From Arcobacteraceae bacterium (GTDB lineage Bacteria > Campylobacterota > Campylobacteria > Campylobacterales > Arcobacteraceae), in the NCBI GenBank assembly GCA_048268245.1, contig JBLWVX010000001.1, positions 64,001 to 128,000 on the forward strand: a stretch of DNA of 64,000 bases, read 5' to 3'. A program made the position numbers and the translations under genes. Each line of letters begins with the position of its first letter. The stretch's first letter is position 1. This document shows, one piece after another, positions 16,526 through 31,406 of the stretch. Under the pieces are notes generated by a model that was not told the DNA's origin, searched no databases, and was given only the letters and a program-made list of their open reading frames with translations.

Positions 16526-18335
16526 ACCTCTCTTTTATTTCAAGGAATTCGTCCAAATTACTCATAAATAATTCAATAAATTCTGGATCAAAATGTTTTC
16601 CTTTTTGTTCTTCAAAAAGATTTAAAATATCTTTTAAAGGCCAAGCTTGTTTATATACTCTTTTACTTCCTAAAGCATCAAAAACATCTGCTATTGCTGT
16701 AATCCTACCAAATATATGAATATCATCACCCTTCAGACCATTTGGGTAACCTGTACCATCCCACTTTTCATGATGAGTTAAAGAAATAATTGCTGCTGCT
16801 TGTAAAATTGGTCTAGAAGAACTTTCTAAGATATTATGACCAAGAGAAGCATGAGTTCTCATAATATCCAACTCTTTTTCATCTAATTTATCTGGTTTAT
16901 TTAAAATACTATCTGGAATTCCAATTTTTCCAATATCATGCATAGGTGAAGCTGTGTAAATTCTATTTACTTCGTCCTCATTTAAACCTAATTTTTTAGC
17001 TAAAAGTTTAGAGTATAATGCAACTCTTTTTACGTGGTTACCTGTTTCTTTACTTCTTGTTTCTCCAACTTCTCCAAGTCTATATATAAGTTCTCTTTGA
17101 GTATCTTCTAGTTCTTTATGAAGATTCTCAATTTTTGTAATATCATGTCTTATTCCCATATATTCATAAATTTCACCATCCGCATTTTTAAGGGGCACTA
17201 CATATGTATTACAATGAAAGTTTTTACCATCTTTGCCAATATTAGATACTTTTCCTTTCCATATTTTACCTTTTTGTAAAGTATCAAACATTTCATTAAG
17301 GAAACTCTCATACTCTTTTTCACTAGTGTCTGGGCTTTTTAATATAGTATAATCTTTTCCTTCCAAATCACTTTTCTCATATTTACTTACTCTACAAAAA
17401 GCTTCATTTACTGATTTTATCTTTCTATCTTTATCAATTTTTATAATCATGTTTGAATTATCAATTGCTTCTTGATAAGTTTTTGCAATACTTATTGATT
17501 CTTTTAAACTTTTTGTTGTTTTATAGTTCTCATTTTGAAAGTACTCTTTAGAACGTTCAAGCTCAGTTATATCACTTCTTAAAGCAATAAACTCTTGAAT
17601 ATTCCCATCTAAATCTAAAATAGGTTTTATAATAGTATCAACTATATAATAATCCCCATTTTTCTTTTTATTTTTAATTTTTCCAGTCCAAACTTTTTTA
17701 TTTAAAATAGTTGCCCATAACTCTTCAAAAAGTTCATCACTAGTATCCGTATGTCTTATAATATTATGAGATTTTCCTAAAACTTCATCTCGAGTAAAGC
17801 CTGAAATTTCTTCAAAAGGTTTGTTTACATAAGTGATATTTCCATTGATATCAGCTTTTGAAACTATAGTCTTTTCATCAACTACACTTTTATATTGTTC
17901 AAAAGTATTAATCAATTCTTGATTTTTATTCTTTAGATATAAATCATTTGCACTTTCAACCATAATATTTAATAATTTCATTAAATCAAGAGGTTTTGTA
18001 AGATAACTTTTTAAATTTAGATTTATTGCTTCAAGTAAATAATCACTATCATTAAATGCTGTAATTACAATAATTCTAGCGTCTTTGTTCATCGCTTTGA
18101 TTTGCTCACTCATTTTAATACCATCAAGTCTTGGCATTTGTATATCTGTTATGATTAAATCAACTTTATTTTCTTTATAGAGTTCTAATCCCTCTTGACC
18201 ATCTCGTCCTACGATTAGTTTTTTAACTCGTCGCTCTAGAAAAAAAACTATTTCTTCCCTTATTTTTTCATCATCTTCAACATATAGAACTACAAGCTCT
18301 TTTAAATATTCTAATTGCTTTTTAATTTCACTCAT
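16515..18335 (-). CDS. REC-PAS-PAS-HD-GYP c-di-GMP phosphodiesterase
   Basis: Receiver, two PAS/PAC domains, ETGNHVKRV, MHDIGK, HHEKWDGTGYP. Confidence 0.93.
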   Translation of the reverse strand: MSEIKKQLEYLKELVVLYVEDDEKIREEIVFFLERRVKKLIVGRDGQEGLELYKENKVDLIITDIQMPRLDGIKMSEQIKAMNKDARIIVITAFNDSDYLLEAINLNLKSYLTKPLDLMKLLNIMVESANDLYLKNKNQELINTFEQYKSVVDEKTIVSKADINGNITYVNKPFEEISGFTRDEVLGKSHNIIRHTDTSDELFEELWATILNKKVWTGKIKNKKKNGDYYIVDTIIKPILDLDGNIQEFIALRSDITELERSKEYFQNENYKTTKSLKESISIAKTYQEAIDNSNMIIKIDKDRKIKSVNEAFCRVSKYEKSDLEGKDYTILKSPDTSEKEYESFLNEMFDTLQKGKIWKGKVSNIGKDGKNFHCNTYVVPLKNADGEIYEYMGIRHDITKIENLHKELEDTQRELIYRLGEVGETRSKETGNHVKRVALYSKLLAKKLGLNEDEVNRIYTASPMHDIGKIGIPDSILNKPDKLDEKELDIMRTHASLGHNILESSSRPILQAAAIISLTHHEKWDGTGYPNGLKGDDIHIFGRITAIADVFDALGSKRVYKQAWPLKDILNLFEEQKGKHFDPEFIELFMSNLDEFLEIKERYED

Positions 18336-28187: not shown

Positions 28188-29396
28188 TTATAAGTTTTTA
28201 AATTTGTCTAATTCGTCTAGTTTTTCCCAAGGATAATCACTTTGACCAACTTGACCTCTTGATGCTACATCTGCATAAAGGAAAGTTTGTGCACTTGGTT
28301 TATCTAGATTAAATTTTTCAGTTATCCATCTTGGTGTTAAAGCGAAATTCTCCATTACGAAAGAAGATAACTTATCATCATCATATTTTGTATATGTTCC
28401 ATATGTATCAACAGACACAGAAGTTGGTTTAGCAACTCCAATTGCATATGAAATTTGAACTAAAGCTTTAGTAGCTAATCCTGCTGCTACGATATGTTTT
28501 GATAACCATCTAGCTGCATATAATCCACTTCTATCAACTTTAGTATAATCTTTAGAACTTTGAGCCCCTCCACCAATTGGTGCATATCCACCAAATGAAT
28601 CAACAATAAGTTTTCTTCCTGTTAATCCACTATCATGTAATGATGAATGACTTACATATCTACCTGTTGGGTTGATATGAATAATTGTTTTTTCTTTGTC
28701 ATACATAGATGTTGGAAGTCCTGTATCATCAATTAAACCTTGAATCAACTCTCTTACTTCTTCTATTGGCATATCTTCAACTGAAGGTGCACTTACAACT
28801 ATAGTATGAATTTTTTGAGGTTTACAATTCTCAAAATTCTCTTTTGTTCCATAATCAACAGTAACTTGAGTTTTAATATCAACTCCAAGCTTGTGATTAT
28901 GTTTTAAAGCATAATTATACACTTTATCACATAACATTCTTGCATATGTGATAGCTGCTGGCATATAATCAGCTGTTTCAGTAGATGCAAAACCAAACAT
29001 AATTCCTTGGTCACCTGCACCGATTTCACCTGTTTCTTGATCAACTCCTTGACCAATATCTGCTGATTGTTGGTTTAATAAAACCTGAACTTTAACATCA
29101 TCAGGGTGTAAACACTGTTCATTTGTAAATGATGATTTTCCATCATAACCAATTTTAGCTAGTGCTTCTAGTACAATCTTTTCATAATCTTCATTAGTTA
29201 ATTGACAATTAGATTTTACCTCTCCACCAATAACGATATTTTTCCCTGCTACAAATACTTCCGATGCAACTCTACTGTTTGAATCTTCAATAATTAATTT
29301 ATCAACGATTGAATCGGCAATAATATCTGCACATTTATCTGGGTGTCCAGGGCTTACAACTTCACTTGTAAATAAATACTGTGTCTTGTTTTCCAT
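28188..29396 (-). CDS. metK: S-adenosylmethionine synthetase
   Basis: [38 protein letters not shown]. Confidence 0.97.
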
Positions 29397-29476
29397 TTTT
29401 GTTTTCCATCCTTTTGTTTTCCAAAGACCAAAGTCTCATTGTTTTCCATTCTTTTGTTTTCCATTTTTGTTTTCCA
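29386..29476 (-). repeat. Six copies of TGGAAAACAA in two triplets flanking a short hairpin, covering the metK leader and start
   Basis: + strand TTGTTTTCCA at 29386, 29399, 29414, 29439, 29454 and 29467. Confidence 0.95.
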
Positions 29477-29603
29477 ACTGCGTTTAAAGTTAAAAAATTT
29501 ATAAAAATAAAAATAAAAGTTTGAATTTTCTTAATTACAAAATTTGTAAAAAAGTGATAAATTTTATCTAAAATATTCTTTTATATGTGTAAAGTAGAAT
29601 TTT

Positions 29604-31406
29604 TTATTCTACTGTTACACTTTTTGCAAGGTTTCTTGGCATATCTACATCATTTCCTAATCTTATAGATATTTCCATAGAAAGAAGTTGTAAAGCAACT
29701 AGCATTTCAAAAAACTCTAACATATAATGATCAGTTATTTCAGTCTTTATAAAATCATCTGCTAGTTCAAAATCAAGTGGAGATACAGAACAAATAGTAC
29801 TATCTCTGGCGCTTAACTCTTCAACATTTGACTTAATCTTGTCATATAGTAAGTTTTGTGGCATTAATGCAATTGTAAATAATTCAGGGTCAGCTAAAGC
29901 AATAGGTCCATGTTTCATCTCACCTGCTGGATAACCTTCTGCATGTAAATATGAAATCTCTTTAAGTTTTAATGCACCTTCAAGTGCTAAAGGGAAGAAT
30001 ACATCTCTTCCAATAAAGAAGAACCCATGTCCATGTAAATATCTCTTTGATAATCTTTTTGTCTTTTCATGAATTTTATCATTTACTATAAGTGCCTTCG
30101 GAACTTCTCTTAAAGCATGTAATTCACTTTGTAATACATCGTTATCTATTACATTTTTTTCTTTTGCAAAATATAAAGCCAACATCCATAAAACAACTGT
30201 TTGTGTTGAAAATGCTTTTGTTGAGGCAACACCTTTTTCAATTCCTGCTCTTGTAAGTATTTTATAATCAGCAACTCTTGTCATAGATGAGTTATCAACA
30301 TTACATACTACAAGTGATTTTAAACCTGCATTTTTTGCCATTTTTAAAGCTTCTAAAGTATCAGCTGTTTCACCACTTTGCGAGATAACAATAAATAAAG
30401 TATCATCAGTTAATAAAGGCTCTTTATATCTAAATTCACTTGCAATTTCTACATTACACTTAACTTTTGAAAGTCTTTCAAATAAATAAGCTGCTGTTAA
30501 TCCTGCATGATATGATGTACCACAAGCACAAATTTTAATCTCTTTAATTCCTTCAATAATTGAAGCATCTATCTCATCAAAAAAAGTTTCATTATCTTTT
30601 ACACGTCCAAGCATACAATCACTTACAACATCACTTTGCTCGTAAATTTCTTTTTCCATGAAAAATCTAAAACCATCTTTTTGAGCATACTGTTTAGAAC
30701 TAGGTAAAGTTCCCCATGAGTAATCATCACAGAAAAATTCAATACCATCTTGTGCACTTGCTACTCCACCTACTCCGTCTTCAAGATATACTACATCATT
30801 TGCTAAGCCAATTAAAGGTGCATCAGAAGAAGCAAATAAAACTTCATTTTCTTCATTTCCTTTTGCTACGATTAAAGGACTTCCATGTTTAAAGAAATAT
30901 ACTTTTTTTGGTGCAGCTTTTGAGATTAGAAGAATTGAAAAGGCACCTTCTAATCTTCCAATAGTATTATGAAAGGCTTTTGTTGTATCATTTAATTCAT
31001 TTTGATAGTTTTCAAAAAGATGTACTATAACTTCTGTATCTGTTTGAGATACAAACTTATGTCCTTTTGCAATTAATTCTTCTTTTAATTCTTTATAGTT
31101 TTCAATAATCCCATTATGAACTACATAAGAGTATTCACCTAAATGTGGGTGTGCATTTAATTCTGTTGGTTTACCGTGAGTTGCCCATCTTGTATGACCT
31201 ATTCCAATTTCATAAGCATTAGTATTGGAATCTACTTTTTCTCTTAAGTTATTCAATTTTCCTAAAGCTTTATAAACATCAATTTTTTCTTGATTTAATA
31301 GTGCAATTCCAGCTGAATCATAACCTCTGTATTCTAACTCTTTTAAACCATCTAATAAAATTTCTTTTGTATTTTGTTTACCAATATAACCAACAATTCC
31401 GCACAT
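29604..31406 (-). CDS. glmS: Glutamine--fructose-6-phosphate aminotransferase
   Basis: True N-terminus MCGIVG at 31406 (Ntn catalytic Cys), LEYRGYDSAG, GHTRWATHG, PRNLAKSVTVE. Confidence 0.98.
   Translation of the reverse strand: MCGIVGYIGKQNTKEILLDGLKELEYRGYDSAGIALLNQEKIDVYKALGKLNNLREKVDSNTNAYEIGIGHTRWATHGKPTELNAHPHLGEYSYVVHNGIIENYKELKEELIAKGHKFVSQTDTEVIVHLFENYQNELNDTTKAFHNTIGRLEGAFSILLISKAAPKKVYFFKHGSPLIVAKGNEENEVLFASSDAPLIGLANDVVYLEDGVGGVASAQDGIEFFCDDYSWGTLPSSKQYAQKDGFRFFMEKEIYEQSDVVSDCMLGRVKDNETFFDEIDASIIEGIKEIKICACGTSYHAGLTAAYLFERLSKVKCNVEIASEFRYKEPLLTDDTLFIVISQSGETADTLEALKMAKNAGLKSLVVCNVDNSSMTRVADYKILTRAGIEKGVASTKAFSTQTVVLWMLALYFAKEKNVIDNDVLQSELHALREVPKALIVNDKIHEKTKRLSKRYLHGHGFFFIGRDVFFPLALEGALKLKEISYLHAEGYPAGEMKHGPIALADPELFTIALMPQNLLYDKIKSNVEELSARDSTICSVSPLDFELADDFIKTEITDHYMLEFFEMLVALQLLSMEISIRLGNDVDMPRNLAKSVTVE

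Follow-up and report, generated by a model that had tools for sequence, protein, structure and literature searches.

The leader of metK, the gene for SAM synthetase, is the obvious candidate for the control of SAM synthesis in Arcobacter, Sulfurospirillum and their relatives. Campylobacterota are described as nearly riboswitch-free (PMC3847290), and a study comparing methionine regulation across Proteobacteria contains no mention of Campylobacter, epsilon or Arcobacter (PMC4239095). In the window analysed here, a stretch of 64,000 nucleotides from an Arcobacteraceae genome, metK is preceded by an array of six short repeats, the last of which runs into the start codon. We found no earlier description of a metK repeat leader in the openly available literature. 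What does this array do, and does it act as DNA, as RNA or through a bound protein?

The repeat array and its distribution

A sequence-only reading of the window had reported six exact decamers within 91 nt at a start-to-start spacing of 13-15-25-15-13. Reading of the minus strand and exact search agree with this, giving six copies of TGGAAAACAA at 29386-29476 with that spacing. As also reported, four of the six copies read ATGGAAAAC, and copy 6 is the metK start itself, overlapping the ATG at 29396-29394. The gene and the array comprise:

28188..29396, minus strand: metK (SAM synthetase), 402 aa, start ATG 29396-29394 (ORF list and Pfam)
29467-29476, 29454-29463, 29439-29448, 29414-29423, 29399-29408, 29386-29395, minus strand: repeat copies 1-6 (exact search)
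29439..29476, minus strand: upstream triplet, copies 1-3 (starts 29476, 29463, 29448), predicted to pair with the U-tract as helix H2 (sequence, exact search, RNAfold)
29386..29423, minus strand: downstream triplet, copies 4-6 (starts 29423, 29408, 29395), unpaired in the MFE structure (sequence, exact search)

The metK product matches the Pfam S-AdoMet_synt N, M and C domains with E-values from 7e-27 to 1.5e-50. Its neighbours glmS, accD, a thiE-like gene and rlmH are metabolic, and no conserved regulator gene adjoins it.

The repeat is clustered at this site only. There are no exact copies elsewhere in the 64-kb window, and allowing up to one mismatch yields 19 matches against 14.4 +/- 3.5 in shuffled sequence, the 13 outside the array being scattered singles. 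Across both strands of the 2.68-Mb genome the exact unit has 29 matches, six of them in the metK array. This array is the only cluster of at least three within 120 nt, both at up to one mismatch (646 matches) and for the core GGAAAAC (327 matches), which answers the genome-wide count that the sequence-only reading had proposed.

The mirror-like spacing would arise because two equivalent 15-nt-spaced modules flank the central hairpin, H3. Copies 2-3 form one instance of the 19-nt module UGGAAAACAAAAG-RA-UGGA and copies 4-5 the other. The two modules of one genome differ by 1-4 purine changes, and their inner spacings covary, being 15/15 in 18 and 14/14 in 10 of the 35 distinct arrays. A purine-motif triplex or mirror repeat was rejected because the likeness is limited to the spacing and does not extend to the bases.

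The array before metK is conserved in two families, the Arcobacteraceae and a Sulfurospirillum-like family. A three-copy pattern is present in 33 of 401 genomes, comprising 21 of 23 Arcobacteraceae, 11 of 19 Sulfurospirillum-like genomes and the window's own genome, and in 0 of 358 genomes from 12 other families. Among named genera, the array is carried by Arcobacter, Aliarcobacter, Halarcobacter, Malaciobacter, Poseidonibacter, Ca. Marinarcus and Sulfurospirillum. At least four exact GGAAAAC copies stand at the metK start in 88 of 110 fetched metK loci, which come from two overlapping fetch sets and are not independent counts. Each genome has one repeat cluster; the other tandem matches inspected were coding or chance. 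Across the two families the heptamer GGAAAAC is invariant in four to six copies, including its C, which has no pairing partner. The array is a conserved, metK-specific leader element.

Arcobacter and Aliarcobacter are examples of the type A architecture described so far. A second architecture, type B, exemplified by Halarcobacter and Poseidonibacter, has four copies at a spacing of 13-13-13 (37 loci), without the central hairpin or the decoy triplet, and is predicted to be unstructured. The type B U-rich anti-repeat pairs weakly, at -4.1 to -8.6 kcal/mol among the rows with the hairpin loop or T-tract correctly picked, four B1 rows being left out; in one type B subtype its position may be 5' of the promoter.

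In agreement with the earlier argument, the symmetry is more than slippage noise. Nor is the array an assembly artefact, which the same reading had named as a risk: further assemblies from the genus contain it too, and a 742-nt contig obtained independently in another run covers 29119-29860 with no indels.

Predicted promoter and ribosome-binding site, and upstream AUGs

Three further features lie around the start of metK:

29561..29566, minus strand: predicted -10 box TAAAAT (sequence)
29362..29409, minus strand: out-of-frame uORF from the copy-5 AUG, 13 nt 5' of the metK AUG, crossing the metK start (translation)
29354..29464, minus strand: 36-codon uORF from the copy-2 AUG, MENKRMENN... (translation)

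The TAAAAT at 29566-29561 had been picked out before and is present as described; with it, the transcript is predicted to start near A 29555 and to have a leader of about 159 nt. Related leaders carry a TAnnnT hexamer a few nucleotides 5' of a conserved ACUUUU (35 of 45 by regular expression, some picks being spurious). The group is said to use -10-only promoters, and a sigma-70 scan requiring a -35 box did not call the predicted metK promoter. Contigs from public RNA libraries contain the 3' triplet and the hairpin at low depth and extend to 29446; these runs were used as contigs, from which transcript ends are not readable. A scan of the metK leader found no terminator-like site, and control would therefore be translational or act via RNA stability. 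A Rho rut site was rejected as well on general grounds: each unit has a single C, which is preceded by A, and G is no rarer than C.

The GGA of copy 5 (29407-29405), 8 nt before the metK ATG, is the likely Shine-Dalgarno (SD), and the anti-SD is matched best by AAAGGA at 29414-29409. Against the 16S 3' tail, taken from a same-genus genome as the rRNA genes are unassembled in the window's genome, the duplex energy is -7.4 kcal/mol for AAAAGGAUGG and -3.3 kcal/mol for the repeat unit.

GGA motifs at the SD, and the resemblance of AAAAGGAUGG to the CsrA consensus, fit the earlier proposal of CsrA-type regulation through (A)UGGA motifs overlapping the SD. CsrA/RsmA target leaders likewise carry GGA motifs at and 5' of the SD (PMC4894983). 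The conserved metK motif, however, far exceeds A(N)GGA in length and lies outside hairpin loops. A search for the CsrA family PF02599, with positive controls, gave matches in 10 of 16 families elsewhere in the order, and none in the window's genome (99.3% complete) or in 24 other Arcobacteraceae genomes. We reject the CsrA model because the gene was not found in these 25 genomes, which only a very divergent CsrA would change, and we give it almost no chance of being correct.

The copy-5 uORF shares its frame and stop with the uORF from 29439, and an AUG at -13 whose ORF overlaps the metK start is found in most type A leaders. The peptides quoted in the sequence-only reading for the uORFs from 29464 and 29439 translate exactly as given. 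As to its suggestion that the repeats provide decoy start sites, 71 of 76 distinct leaders have an out-of-frame upstream AUG with an ORF overlapping the metK start. The peptide and frame are not conserved, however, the copy-2 uORF varying in frame and length among genera, and the upstream AUG may therefore be a by-product of the repeat. Leader-peptide attenuation was rejected on this same lack of conservation. The idea that the upstream AUGs extend MetK at its N terminus fails for type A leaders; in type B leaders the first AUG is in frame with metK in 28 of 32 distinct leaders, and these organisms may make an extended MetK isoform.

These features raise the possibility of a constitutive translation device, in which tandem weak SD-spacer-AUG units act as a ribosome standby site or enhancer without metabolite sensing, the leader helices P1, H2 and H3 merely stabilise the mRNA and out-of-frame upstream AUGs tune output. 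Each unit is a plausible initiation region, its GGA standing 8 nt 5' of the following AUG; AAAGGA is paired by the 16S tail; no pairing is predicted for the downstream triplet or for any type B copy; and the overlapping upstream AUG is widespread. Such a device leaves three observations unexplained: the occurrence at metK only; the invariant heptamer, C included, where SD-like A-rich drift would be expected; and the retention of the U-tract and of two equivalent modules with joint spacing changes. We therefore regard it as quite unlikely.

Structure of the leader RNA

The predicted leader contains three elements upstream of or between the triplets:

29530..29554, minus strand: P1, 5'-terminal hairpin of the predicted leader (RNAfold)
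29488..29525, minus strand: U-rich anti-repeat tract, UUCAAACUUUUAUUUUUAUUUUUAUAAAUUUUUUAACU (RNAfold and constrained folds)
29424..29437, minus strand: central hairpin H3, GAGAC-UUUG-GUCUU (sequence, folding, covariation)

Relatives keep a hairpin at the position of P1 with different stem sequences. The U-tract is conserved from Arcobacter to Sulfurospirillum. Its lower part (29525-29500) is predicted to be able to pair with copies 2-3 or with copies 4-5, and its upper part (29497-29488) with copy 1. This tract, absent from the sequence-only reading, offers a simpler account of the symmetry.

The mini-hairpin between the triplets, which that reading had noted, lies at 29424-29437, and its pairing is kept across genera that differ in its sequence and length. 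Among distinct central spacers, 36 of 39 fold with z <= -1.9. The hairpins span 18 to 124 nt and contain 363 Watson-Crick and 35 G-U pairs; their loops are not conserved, whereas in 29 of the 36 folding spacers the flanking segments keep a constant length, 3-4 nt to the left and 1 nt to the right. In an alignment of 35 leaders all five H3 pairs have changed on both sides, with 96.4% of cells paired.

In the same 35 leaders, 8 of 10 pairs of apical H2, formed by the U-tract and the upstream triplet, are compensatory. For the whole model 89.4% of cells pair, compared with 79.5% in shuffles (0 of 500 reach the observed value) and at most 68.3% when the strands are slid, in an alignment fitted to the model's own structure. 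This fitting was needed because a plain MAFFT alignment gave no usable structure: with 27 leaders, RNAalifold returned no structure and a column-pair search no meaningful pairs. The pairing kept through changes in H3 and apical H2 indicates that the element acts as a folded RNA.

The lower helix is different in this respect. Its columns barely vary, and neither register of the U-tract is therefore supported by covariation (helix 2 has 0 pairs changed on both sides). For the alternative lower helix, with copies 4-5, 85.1% of cells pair compared with 52.9-77.1% when slid, a value that equals its own shuffles. Copies 4-6 in type A leaders, like the four copies in type B, cover the SD and the AUG and are predicted to stay single-stranded.

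The folding of the central insert also bears on the earlier model of a direct-repeat DNA operator, with MetJ-like tandem boxes between promoter and start codon. The repeats do have a 10-bp core, lie in one orientation and are 3' of the predicted promoter, and MetJ-type repressors use tandem boxes. MetJ metboxes, however, are contiguous 8-bp boxes, whereas the units here are 13-15 bp apart, which would place successive sites on different helix faces, and are split by a variable RNA hairpin. Depending on the genus, the two triplets stand 25 to 131 bp apart, and the insert keeps folding as RNA through compensatory changes and G-U pairs. MetJ (PF01340) had no match in the genome with a valid control, and there is one site per genome. 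We consider an operator of this kind very improbable.

The single-stranded copies suggest another possibility, a multivalent site for an oligomeric RNA-binding protein that binds the GGAAAAC units in the manner of TRAP or HutP and represses translation by covering the SD and AUG, its activity being set by a metabolite such as SAM. MetK itself could be the binder, in an autoregulatory loop. The Bacillus proteins TRAP and HutP recognise short GAG or UAG repeats in single-stranded RNA, some of which overlap the SD and start codon, and HutP uses two sets of three. The metK array is similar in its predicted single-stranded repeats over the SD and start codon and in its 3+3 arrangement. In contrast to triplets at 5-6 nt, its units are 7-10 nt long at a spacing of 13-15 nt, half of the copies are predicted to be paired, and there is a single target. 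A protein site would account for the invariance of the heptamer with its unpaired C, for the strict 13-nt spacing of the four unstructured type B copies and for the cover of the SD and start codon by the last two copies; the fixed-flank hairpin would hold copy 3 and copy 4 about as far apart as neighbouring repeats. Against it stand the one target per genome, the lack of a conserved regulator gene nearby, and the predicted burial of three of the six copies in H2, the apical part of which covaries. No candidate protein emerged: besides CsrA and MetJ, Hfq (PF17209), which an A-rich (ARN) site would require, was not found in the genome, with a valid control. C. jejuni is also stated to be without Hfq (PMC3847290). 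Overall, we judge the protein model unlikely.

A related proposal, by analogy with METTL16 and MAT2A, treats the repeats as a SAM gauge, that is, as a target or mimic of a SAM-dependent RNA or DNA methyltransferase. The vertebrate MAT2A 3'UTR has six conserved nonamers in hairpin loops that are methylated by METTL16, and here, too, six copies of a conserved nonamer are found on a SAM synthetase mRNA. GGAAAAC also loosely resembles GGAA-type rRNA methylation loops. The metK copies, however, are linear units in a 5' leader that flank a hairpin or pair with the U-tract, and they are not in hairpin loops. We found no link between a methyltransferase and the metK repeats, and no candidate enzyme. 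The 16S rRNA of a same-genus genome has neither a G-UUUU-YY site nor GGAAAAC, and the one GGAAAAC in its 23S operon stretch is not known to be a methylation site. We consider a methylation gauge very improbable.

A candidate two-register switch

The two 15-nt-spaced repeat pairs are near-identical, so that one U-tract is predicted to accept either of them as its partner. In constrained folds that make copies 2-3 unavailable, it turns to copies 4-5 instead. This alternative register costs 0.5, 0.9, 1.5, 3.2, 4.8 and 7.6 kcal/mol in six Arcobacter-type leaders, 3.2-5.2 kcal/mol in five Aliarcobacter-type leaders and 5.5-10.6 kcal/mol in Sulfurospirillum-type leaders, these being rough values, since A/U-rich strands pair promiscuously and nearest-neighbour energies of such helices are approximate. 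The ensemble probability that the SD is unpaired is 0.31-0.38 in five of the six Arcobacter-type leaders. In the predicted alternative fold UUCA pairs with the UGGA of copy 5, in a helix that is conserved but invariant.

We infer a regulatory role for the metK leader, in which folding predicts two near-isoenergetic registers. Each repeat copies the metK initiation unit: GGA as a weak SD, followed by an A-rich spacer and then an AUG. The U-rich tract is their complement by A-U and G-U pairing, with the invariant C opposite A or bulged out. In the predicted ground state the U-tract and the upstream triplet would form the long helix H2, followed by H3, leaving the downstream triplet with the real SD and AUG single-stranded and translation on. 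In the alternative state the lower U-tract would pair with copies 4-5 and stack on H3, burying the SD (UUCA with UGGA) and turning translation off. The upstream triplet would thus serve as a decoy or anti-sequestor. Of the two outer copies, copy 1 would pair with the upper U-tract and copy 6 provides the start codon. An effector would shift the balance between the registers and so set MetK synthesis. We tentatively favour this reading of the leader as a bistable translational switch, resembling the SMK box in mode without being a member of that class, and rate its chance at somewhat below even.

Other metK leaders suggest that the effector would most likely be SAM, acting directly or by way of a protein; we infer the role of SAM solely from the identity of the downstream gene, metK. 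If sensing were direct, the element would be a metabolite-sensing riboswitch of a new class, with SAM as the most plausible ligand, which would stabilise a three-way junction of the off state and shut MetK translation. The junction would form at the helix between the U-tract and copies 4-5, beside H3 and the apical hairpin, and the expression platform would be the two-register switch built from repeated ribosome-binding units. We consider this possible but doubtful; if true, it would give Campylobacterota their first SAM-responsive RNA.

The leader is unlike catalogued SAM elements, as the sequence-only reading had held. Rfam scans of seven metK leaders (positions 28900-29900 of the window and six related loci) gave no match at E <= 10. 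SAM-I (RF00162) had no match in the leaders or in the whole genome, the latter with a valid control. SAM-II (RF00521), SAM-V (RF01826) and the SMK box (SAM-III, RF01767) had no match in the leaders; the genome searches for these three were empty, with controls that were also silent. SAM-II and SAM-V place U-rich and A-rich strands around the SD of methionine or SAM genes and control translation. The type A leader differs from them in that no Rfam match and no H-type pseudoknot is evident and its repeats have no counterpart there.

The closest parallel to the proposed switch is the SMK box of Lactobacillales metK, likewise a translational metK leader element without a terminator. There, an upstream anti-SD pairs with the SD in one of two thermodynamically balanced folds (PMC6152003, PMC4239095). 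A similar scheme of an upstream anti-SD strand and two alternative folds is predicted here, but sequence and structure do not match, and the metK leader described here has repeated initiation units and a U-rich tract instead. Its design would be unusual in that duplicated initiation regions serve as both decoy and target for one sequestering strand, which, if true, would provide a compact, evolvable route to a bistable RNA.

The repeat array at metK and its distribution

The six-repeat observation stands and lies far beyond chance. An exact search of the window bore out the sequence-only reading, which had placed the last of six exact copies on the metK ATG, and translation returned both of its uORF peptides exactly. 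In mRNA order the minus strand reads cagt-TGGAAAACAA-aaa-TGGAAAACAA-aagaa-TGGAAAACAA-t-GAGACtttgGTCTT-TGGAAAACAA-aagga-TGGAAAACAA-aaa-TGGAAAACAA-gac, and the sixth copy overlaps the start codon.

Starts 29476, 29463, 29448, 29423, 29408 and 29395, minus strand: six exact TGGAAAACAA copies (copies 1-6)
28188-29396, minus strand: metK, a 402-aa ORF with all three SAM synthetase domains

The metK frame ends upstream at an in-frame TGA (29438), so that 29396 is the first possible metK start. The 64-kb window holds no further exact copy outside the array. Genome-wide (2.68 Mb, 28% G+C) there are 29 exact copies, six of them within the array, which is the sole site with at least three copies in 120 nt, even at one mismatch. 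The 7-nt core GGAAAAC alone likewise has no second site of that density, so that the cluster count proposed in the sequence-only reading gives one cluster only, at metK. The array is not an assembly artefact: the identical array is present in other assemblies of the genus, and an unrelated run yielded a 742-nt contig that crosses it without indels. A 47-codon antisense ORF (29381-29524, plus strand) crosses the entire array; its frame cannot be conserved because repeat spacing varies between genera, and it is probably a mechanical ORF.

We fetched metK with its flanks from 30 relatives and from 80 named records (110 loci, which are not independent as the two sets overlap). The window MetK and its counterpart in a named Arcobacter isolate share 98% identity. 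At least four exact GGAAAAC copies occur at the metK start in 88/110 loci, two copies in 2/110, and one or none in 20/110. The unit recurs in most of these upstream regions, a check that the earlier reading had proposed, with spacing in several types. Its conserved core is GGAAAAC(A)A; AUG is not part of it and is missing from copies 1 and 4 and, in type B, from the third copy.

Spacing types of the array at metK
Type A: three copies-hairpin-three copies, 13-15-[25 to 69]-15-13; Arcobacter-type genomes, some Sulfurospirillum
Aliarcobacter form: 14-[25/26]-14, outer copies degenerate (AGAAAAC and GGAAAAA)
Sulfurospirillum forms: 15-[27 to 131]-15(-13)
Type B: four copies, 13-13-13, no hairpin, 37 loci; Halarcobacter, Poseidonibacter, Malaciobacter, Ca. 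Marinarcus

The metK loci of Campylobacter, Sulfurimonas and Nitratifractor are without the array, though their MetK is of the same type (73-80% identity). Pattern searches covered 401 genomes within the order. A pattern of two copies was found in 38/39 and 36/38 genomes of the two array-bearing families and sporadically in the remaining families, at about the rate of a reversed-pattern control; a three-copy pattern occurred in 21/23 and 11/19 genomes of the two families and in 0/358 across twelve others. There is one cluster per genome. Extra tandem matches, where fetched, were coding sequence or chance, except for a further metK leader, which sits on a short contig.

Several further loci stand out. 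In L027 (genome G006) metK lacks a leader array and begins with two in-frame ATGGAAAACAA copies 15 nt apart (MENKSMENN...); this could be a vestige of the element or a minimal version of it. L115 (G123:C23, another family) has an ORF unrelated to metK, apparently encoding a membrane protein, that opens with three in-frame units set 12 nt apart (MGNKMENKMENK). In L013 (G008:C52, ~17348-17560) the metK 5' end and four repeats are duplicated around a run of N, probably an assembly or scaffolding problem due to the repeats. Loci labelled Paceibacteria, Sulfurovum and Proteobacteria (L035, L064, L107) carry metK and leader of Arcobacter or Sulfurospirillum type, and are probably mislabelled or mis-binned metagenome bins. 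A second metK paralogue, only 44-45% identical to the window metK, occurs in several genomes of the family (G006, G007, G016, G017 and others); many other families of the order have this type alone.

Architecture of the leader RNA

The spacer between the two triplets varies from 18 to 124 nt between genera and differs entirely in sequence, yet for 36/39 distinct spacers a hairpin is predicted, with z <= -1.9 relative to shuffled sequence. These stems comprise 363 Watson-Crick and 35 G-U pairs, and in 29/36 the hairpin base follows the left-copy C by 3-4 nt and precedes the right-copy G by 1 nt. This pattern indicates that the element acts as RNA. The repeats and hairpin of the earlier reading hold, but it had overlooked a complementary U-tract upstream.

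29566-29561, minus strand: -10-like hexamer TAAAAT, conserved in relatives, predicted promoter
Minus strand: P1, 5' hairpin of the predicted leader, stem sequence variable among relatives
29525-29488, minus strand: U-rich tract UUCAAACUUUUA...UUUUUUAACU, strongly conserved from Sulfurospirillum to Arcobacter

A conserved ACUUUU follows TAAAAT by a few bases, and relatives retain both. Upstream, a hairpin over the glmS stop codon (29594-29612, minus strand; GUAGAAU-aaaaa-AUUCUAC, then UUU) is likely a weak glmS terminator directly ahead of the predicted metK promoter.

For all type A lineages tried, RNAfold predicts that the U-tract and the upstream triplet pair: UUUUUUAACU with AGUUGGAAAA of copy 1, CUUUUAUUUUU(U)A with (A)UGGAAAACAAAAG of copy 2, and UUCA with UGGA of copy 3, the invariant C of the unit lying opposite A or bulged. 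A covariance model derived from 11 Arcobacter-type leaders served to align 35 type A leaders; in this alignment, whose pair counts are model-dependent as it is fitted to the structure, 89.4% of cells are paired, against 79.5% when shuffled (0/500 reach the observed value) and at most 68.3% with the partner slid. Within the same model-fitted alignment, both-side changes occur in 5/5 pairs of the central hairpin and 8/10 pairs of the apical helix formed by the U-tract and copy 1, where for instance UU or CC stands opposite GG and, in Aliarcobacter, CU opposite AG. The basal helices are conserved and almost invariant.

Candidate regulators and known elements

The earlier view that no known SAM element resembles the array agrees with an Rfam scan (E <= 10), in which no family matched the window leader or six leaders of other types. 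SAM-I riboswitches and the genes for MetJ and Hfq were not found in the genome, with valid controls; searches for SAM-II, SAM-V and SAM-III were empty, and the controls for each were silent. The metK leader contains no terminator-like site, and no regulator gene is found among the metK neighbours (glmS, accD, a thiE-like gene and rlmH). Complementarity to rRNA, or its mimicry, by the unit is unsupported apart from the ordinary SD. An out-of-frame upstream AUG opens an ORF overlapping the metK start in 71/76 distinct leaders; a leader-peptide mechanism is unlikely because neither the upstream frames nor the peptides are conserved. CsrA, suggested by the sequence-only reading, is ruled out: a search did not find its gene in the window genome or in any of 24/24 other genomes of the family. 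It is present in 10/16 other families of the order (G001-G040 survey), and the window's family as a whole appears to have lost a global post-transcriptional regulator.

In the accessible papers of the full-text literature searched (metK, Arcobacter/Epsilonproteobacteria, SAM riboswitches, GGAAAAC), the array element is not described. For C. jejuni, PMC3847290 gives TPP as the only metabolite riboswitch in 5' UTRs and Hfq as absent.

Two predicted pairing registers and a possible switch

The module UGGAAAACAAAAG-RA-UGGA is present twice, in copies 2-3 and 4-5, and the two modules of one genome are 1-4 purine changes apart. Their inner spacings change in step (15/15 in 18/35 and 14/14 in 10/35 distinct arrays); four more arrays have GGACAAC as left inner copy, with spacing 15 by eye. 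That two equivalent modules flank a hairpin offers a concrete explanation of the mirror-like spacing seen in the earlier reading. When copies 2-3 were barred from pairing in constrained folding, the lower U-tract paired with copies 4-5, the apical hairpin being retained. In this alternative register UUCA is predicted to lie over the UGGA containing the metK SD GGA, and the new helix adjoins the central hairpin without a linker.

Predicted cost of the alternative register at 37 °C
Arcobacter-type, six leaders: 0.5, 0.9, 1.5, 3.2, 4.8, 7.6 kcal/mol
Aliarcobacter-type, five leaders: 3.2-5.2 kcal/mol
Sulfurospirillum-type, four leaders: 5.5-10.6 kcal/mol

The predicted ensemble gives an SD unpaired probability of 0.31-0.38 in 5/6 Arcobacter-type leaders. 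Across the 35 leaders the alternative helix has 85.1% of cells paired versus 52.9-77.1% when slid, and shows no covariation because its columns scarcely vary.

The best-supported account, which we favour tentatively, is that the metK leader is a structured cis-regulatory RNA that may act as a bistable translational switch. One U-rich sequestor would have two competing targets, the true initiation region and a decoy copy of it; of the outer copies, one would partner the upper U-tract and the other is the start codon. From the identity of metK we infer SAM as the effector, sensed directly or via a protein. The proposed mechanism would resemble that of the SMK box of Lactobacillales metK, in which one of two balanced folds sequesters the SD and no terminator is involved (PMC6152003; class list, PMC4239095), but the window leader belongs to neither the SMK nor any other catalogued family.

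Type B is the weakest point of the two-register model, because all four copies are predicted single-stranded and the candidate tracts, if transcribed, would pair weakly, with either half alike. One subtype has an upstream hairpin with a covarying stem and a conserved loop, UAUAUUUGUUAUUUUUUA, complementary to the repeat unit; the other has a T-rich tract with the same pattern. Their predicted pairing is about equal for the upstream and downstream halves of the array, at -4.1 to -8.6 kcal/mol where the loop or T-tract was picked correctly; the first subtype also has four rows with a wrongly chosen loop. Single-stranded units are what an oligomeric RNA-binding protein, possibly MetK itself, would read, an explanation that we consider less likely than the switch. 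A constitutive standby or enhancer role of the array seems slightly less probable again.

Beside the switch model, three Sulfurospirillum-type leaders (L104, L070, L065) have a predicted long-range helix between a conserved 5' GCGGUGG and CUACCUC in metK codons 8-10, which would enclose the entire leader and start codon.
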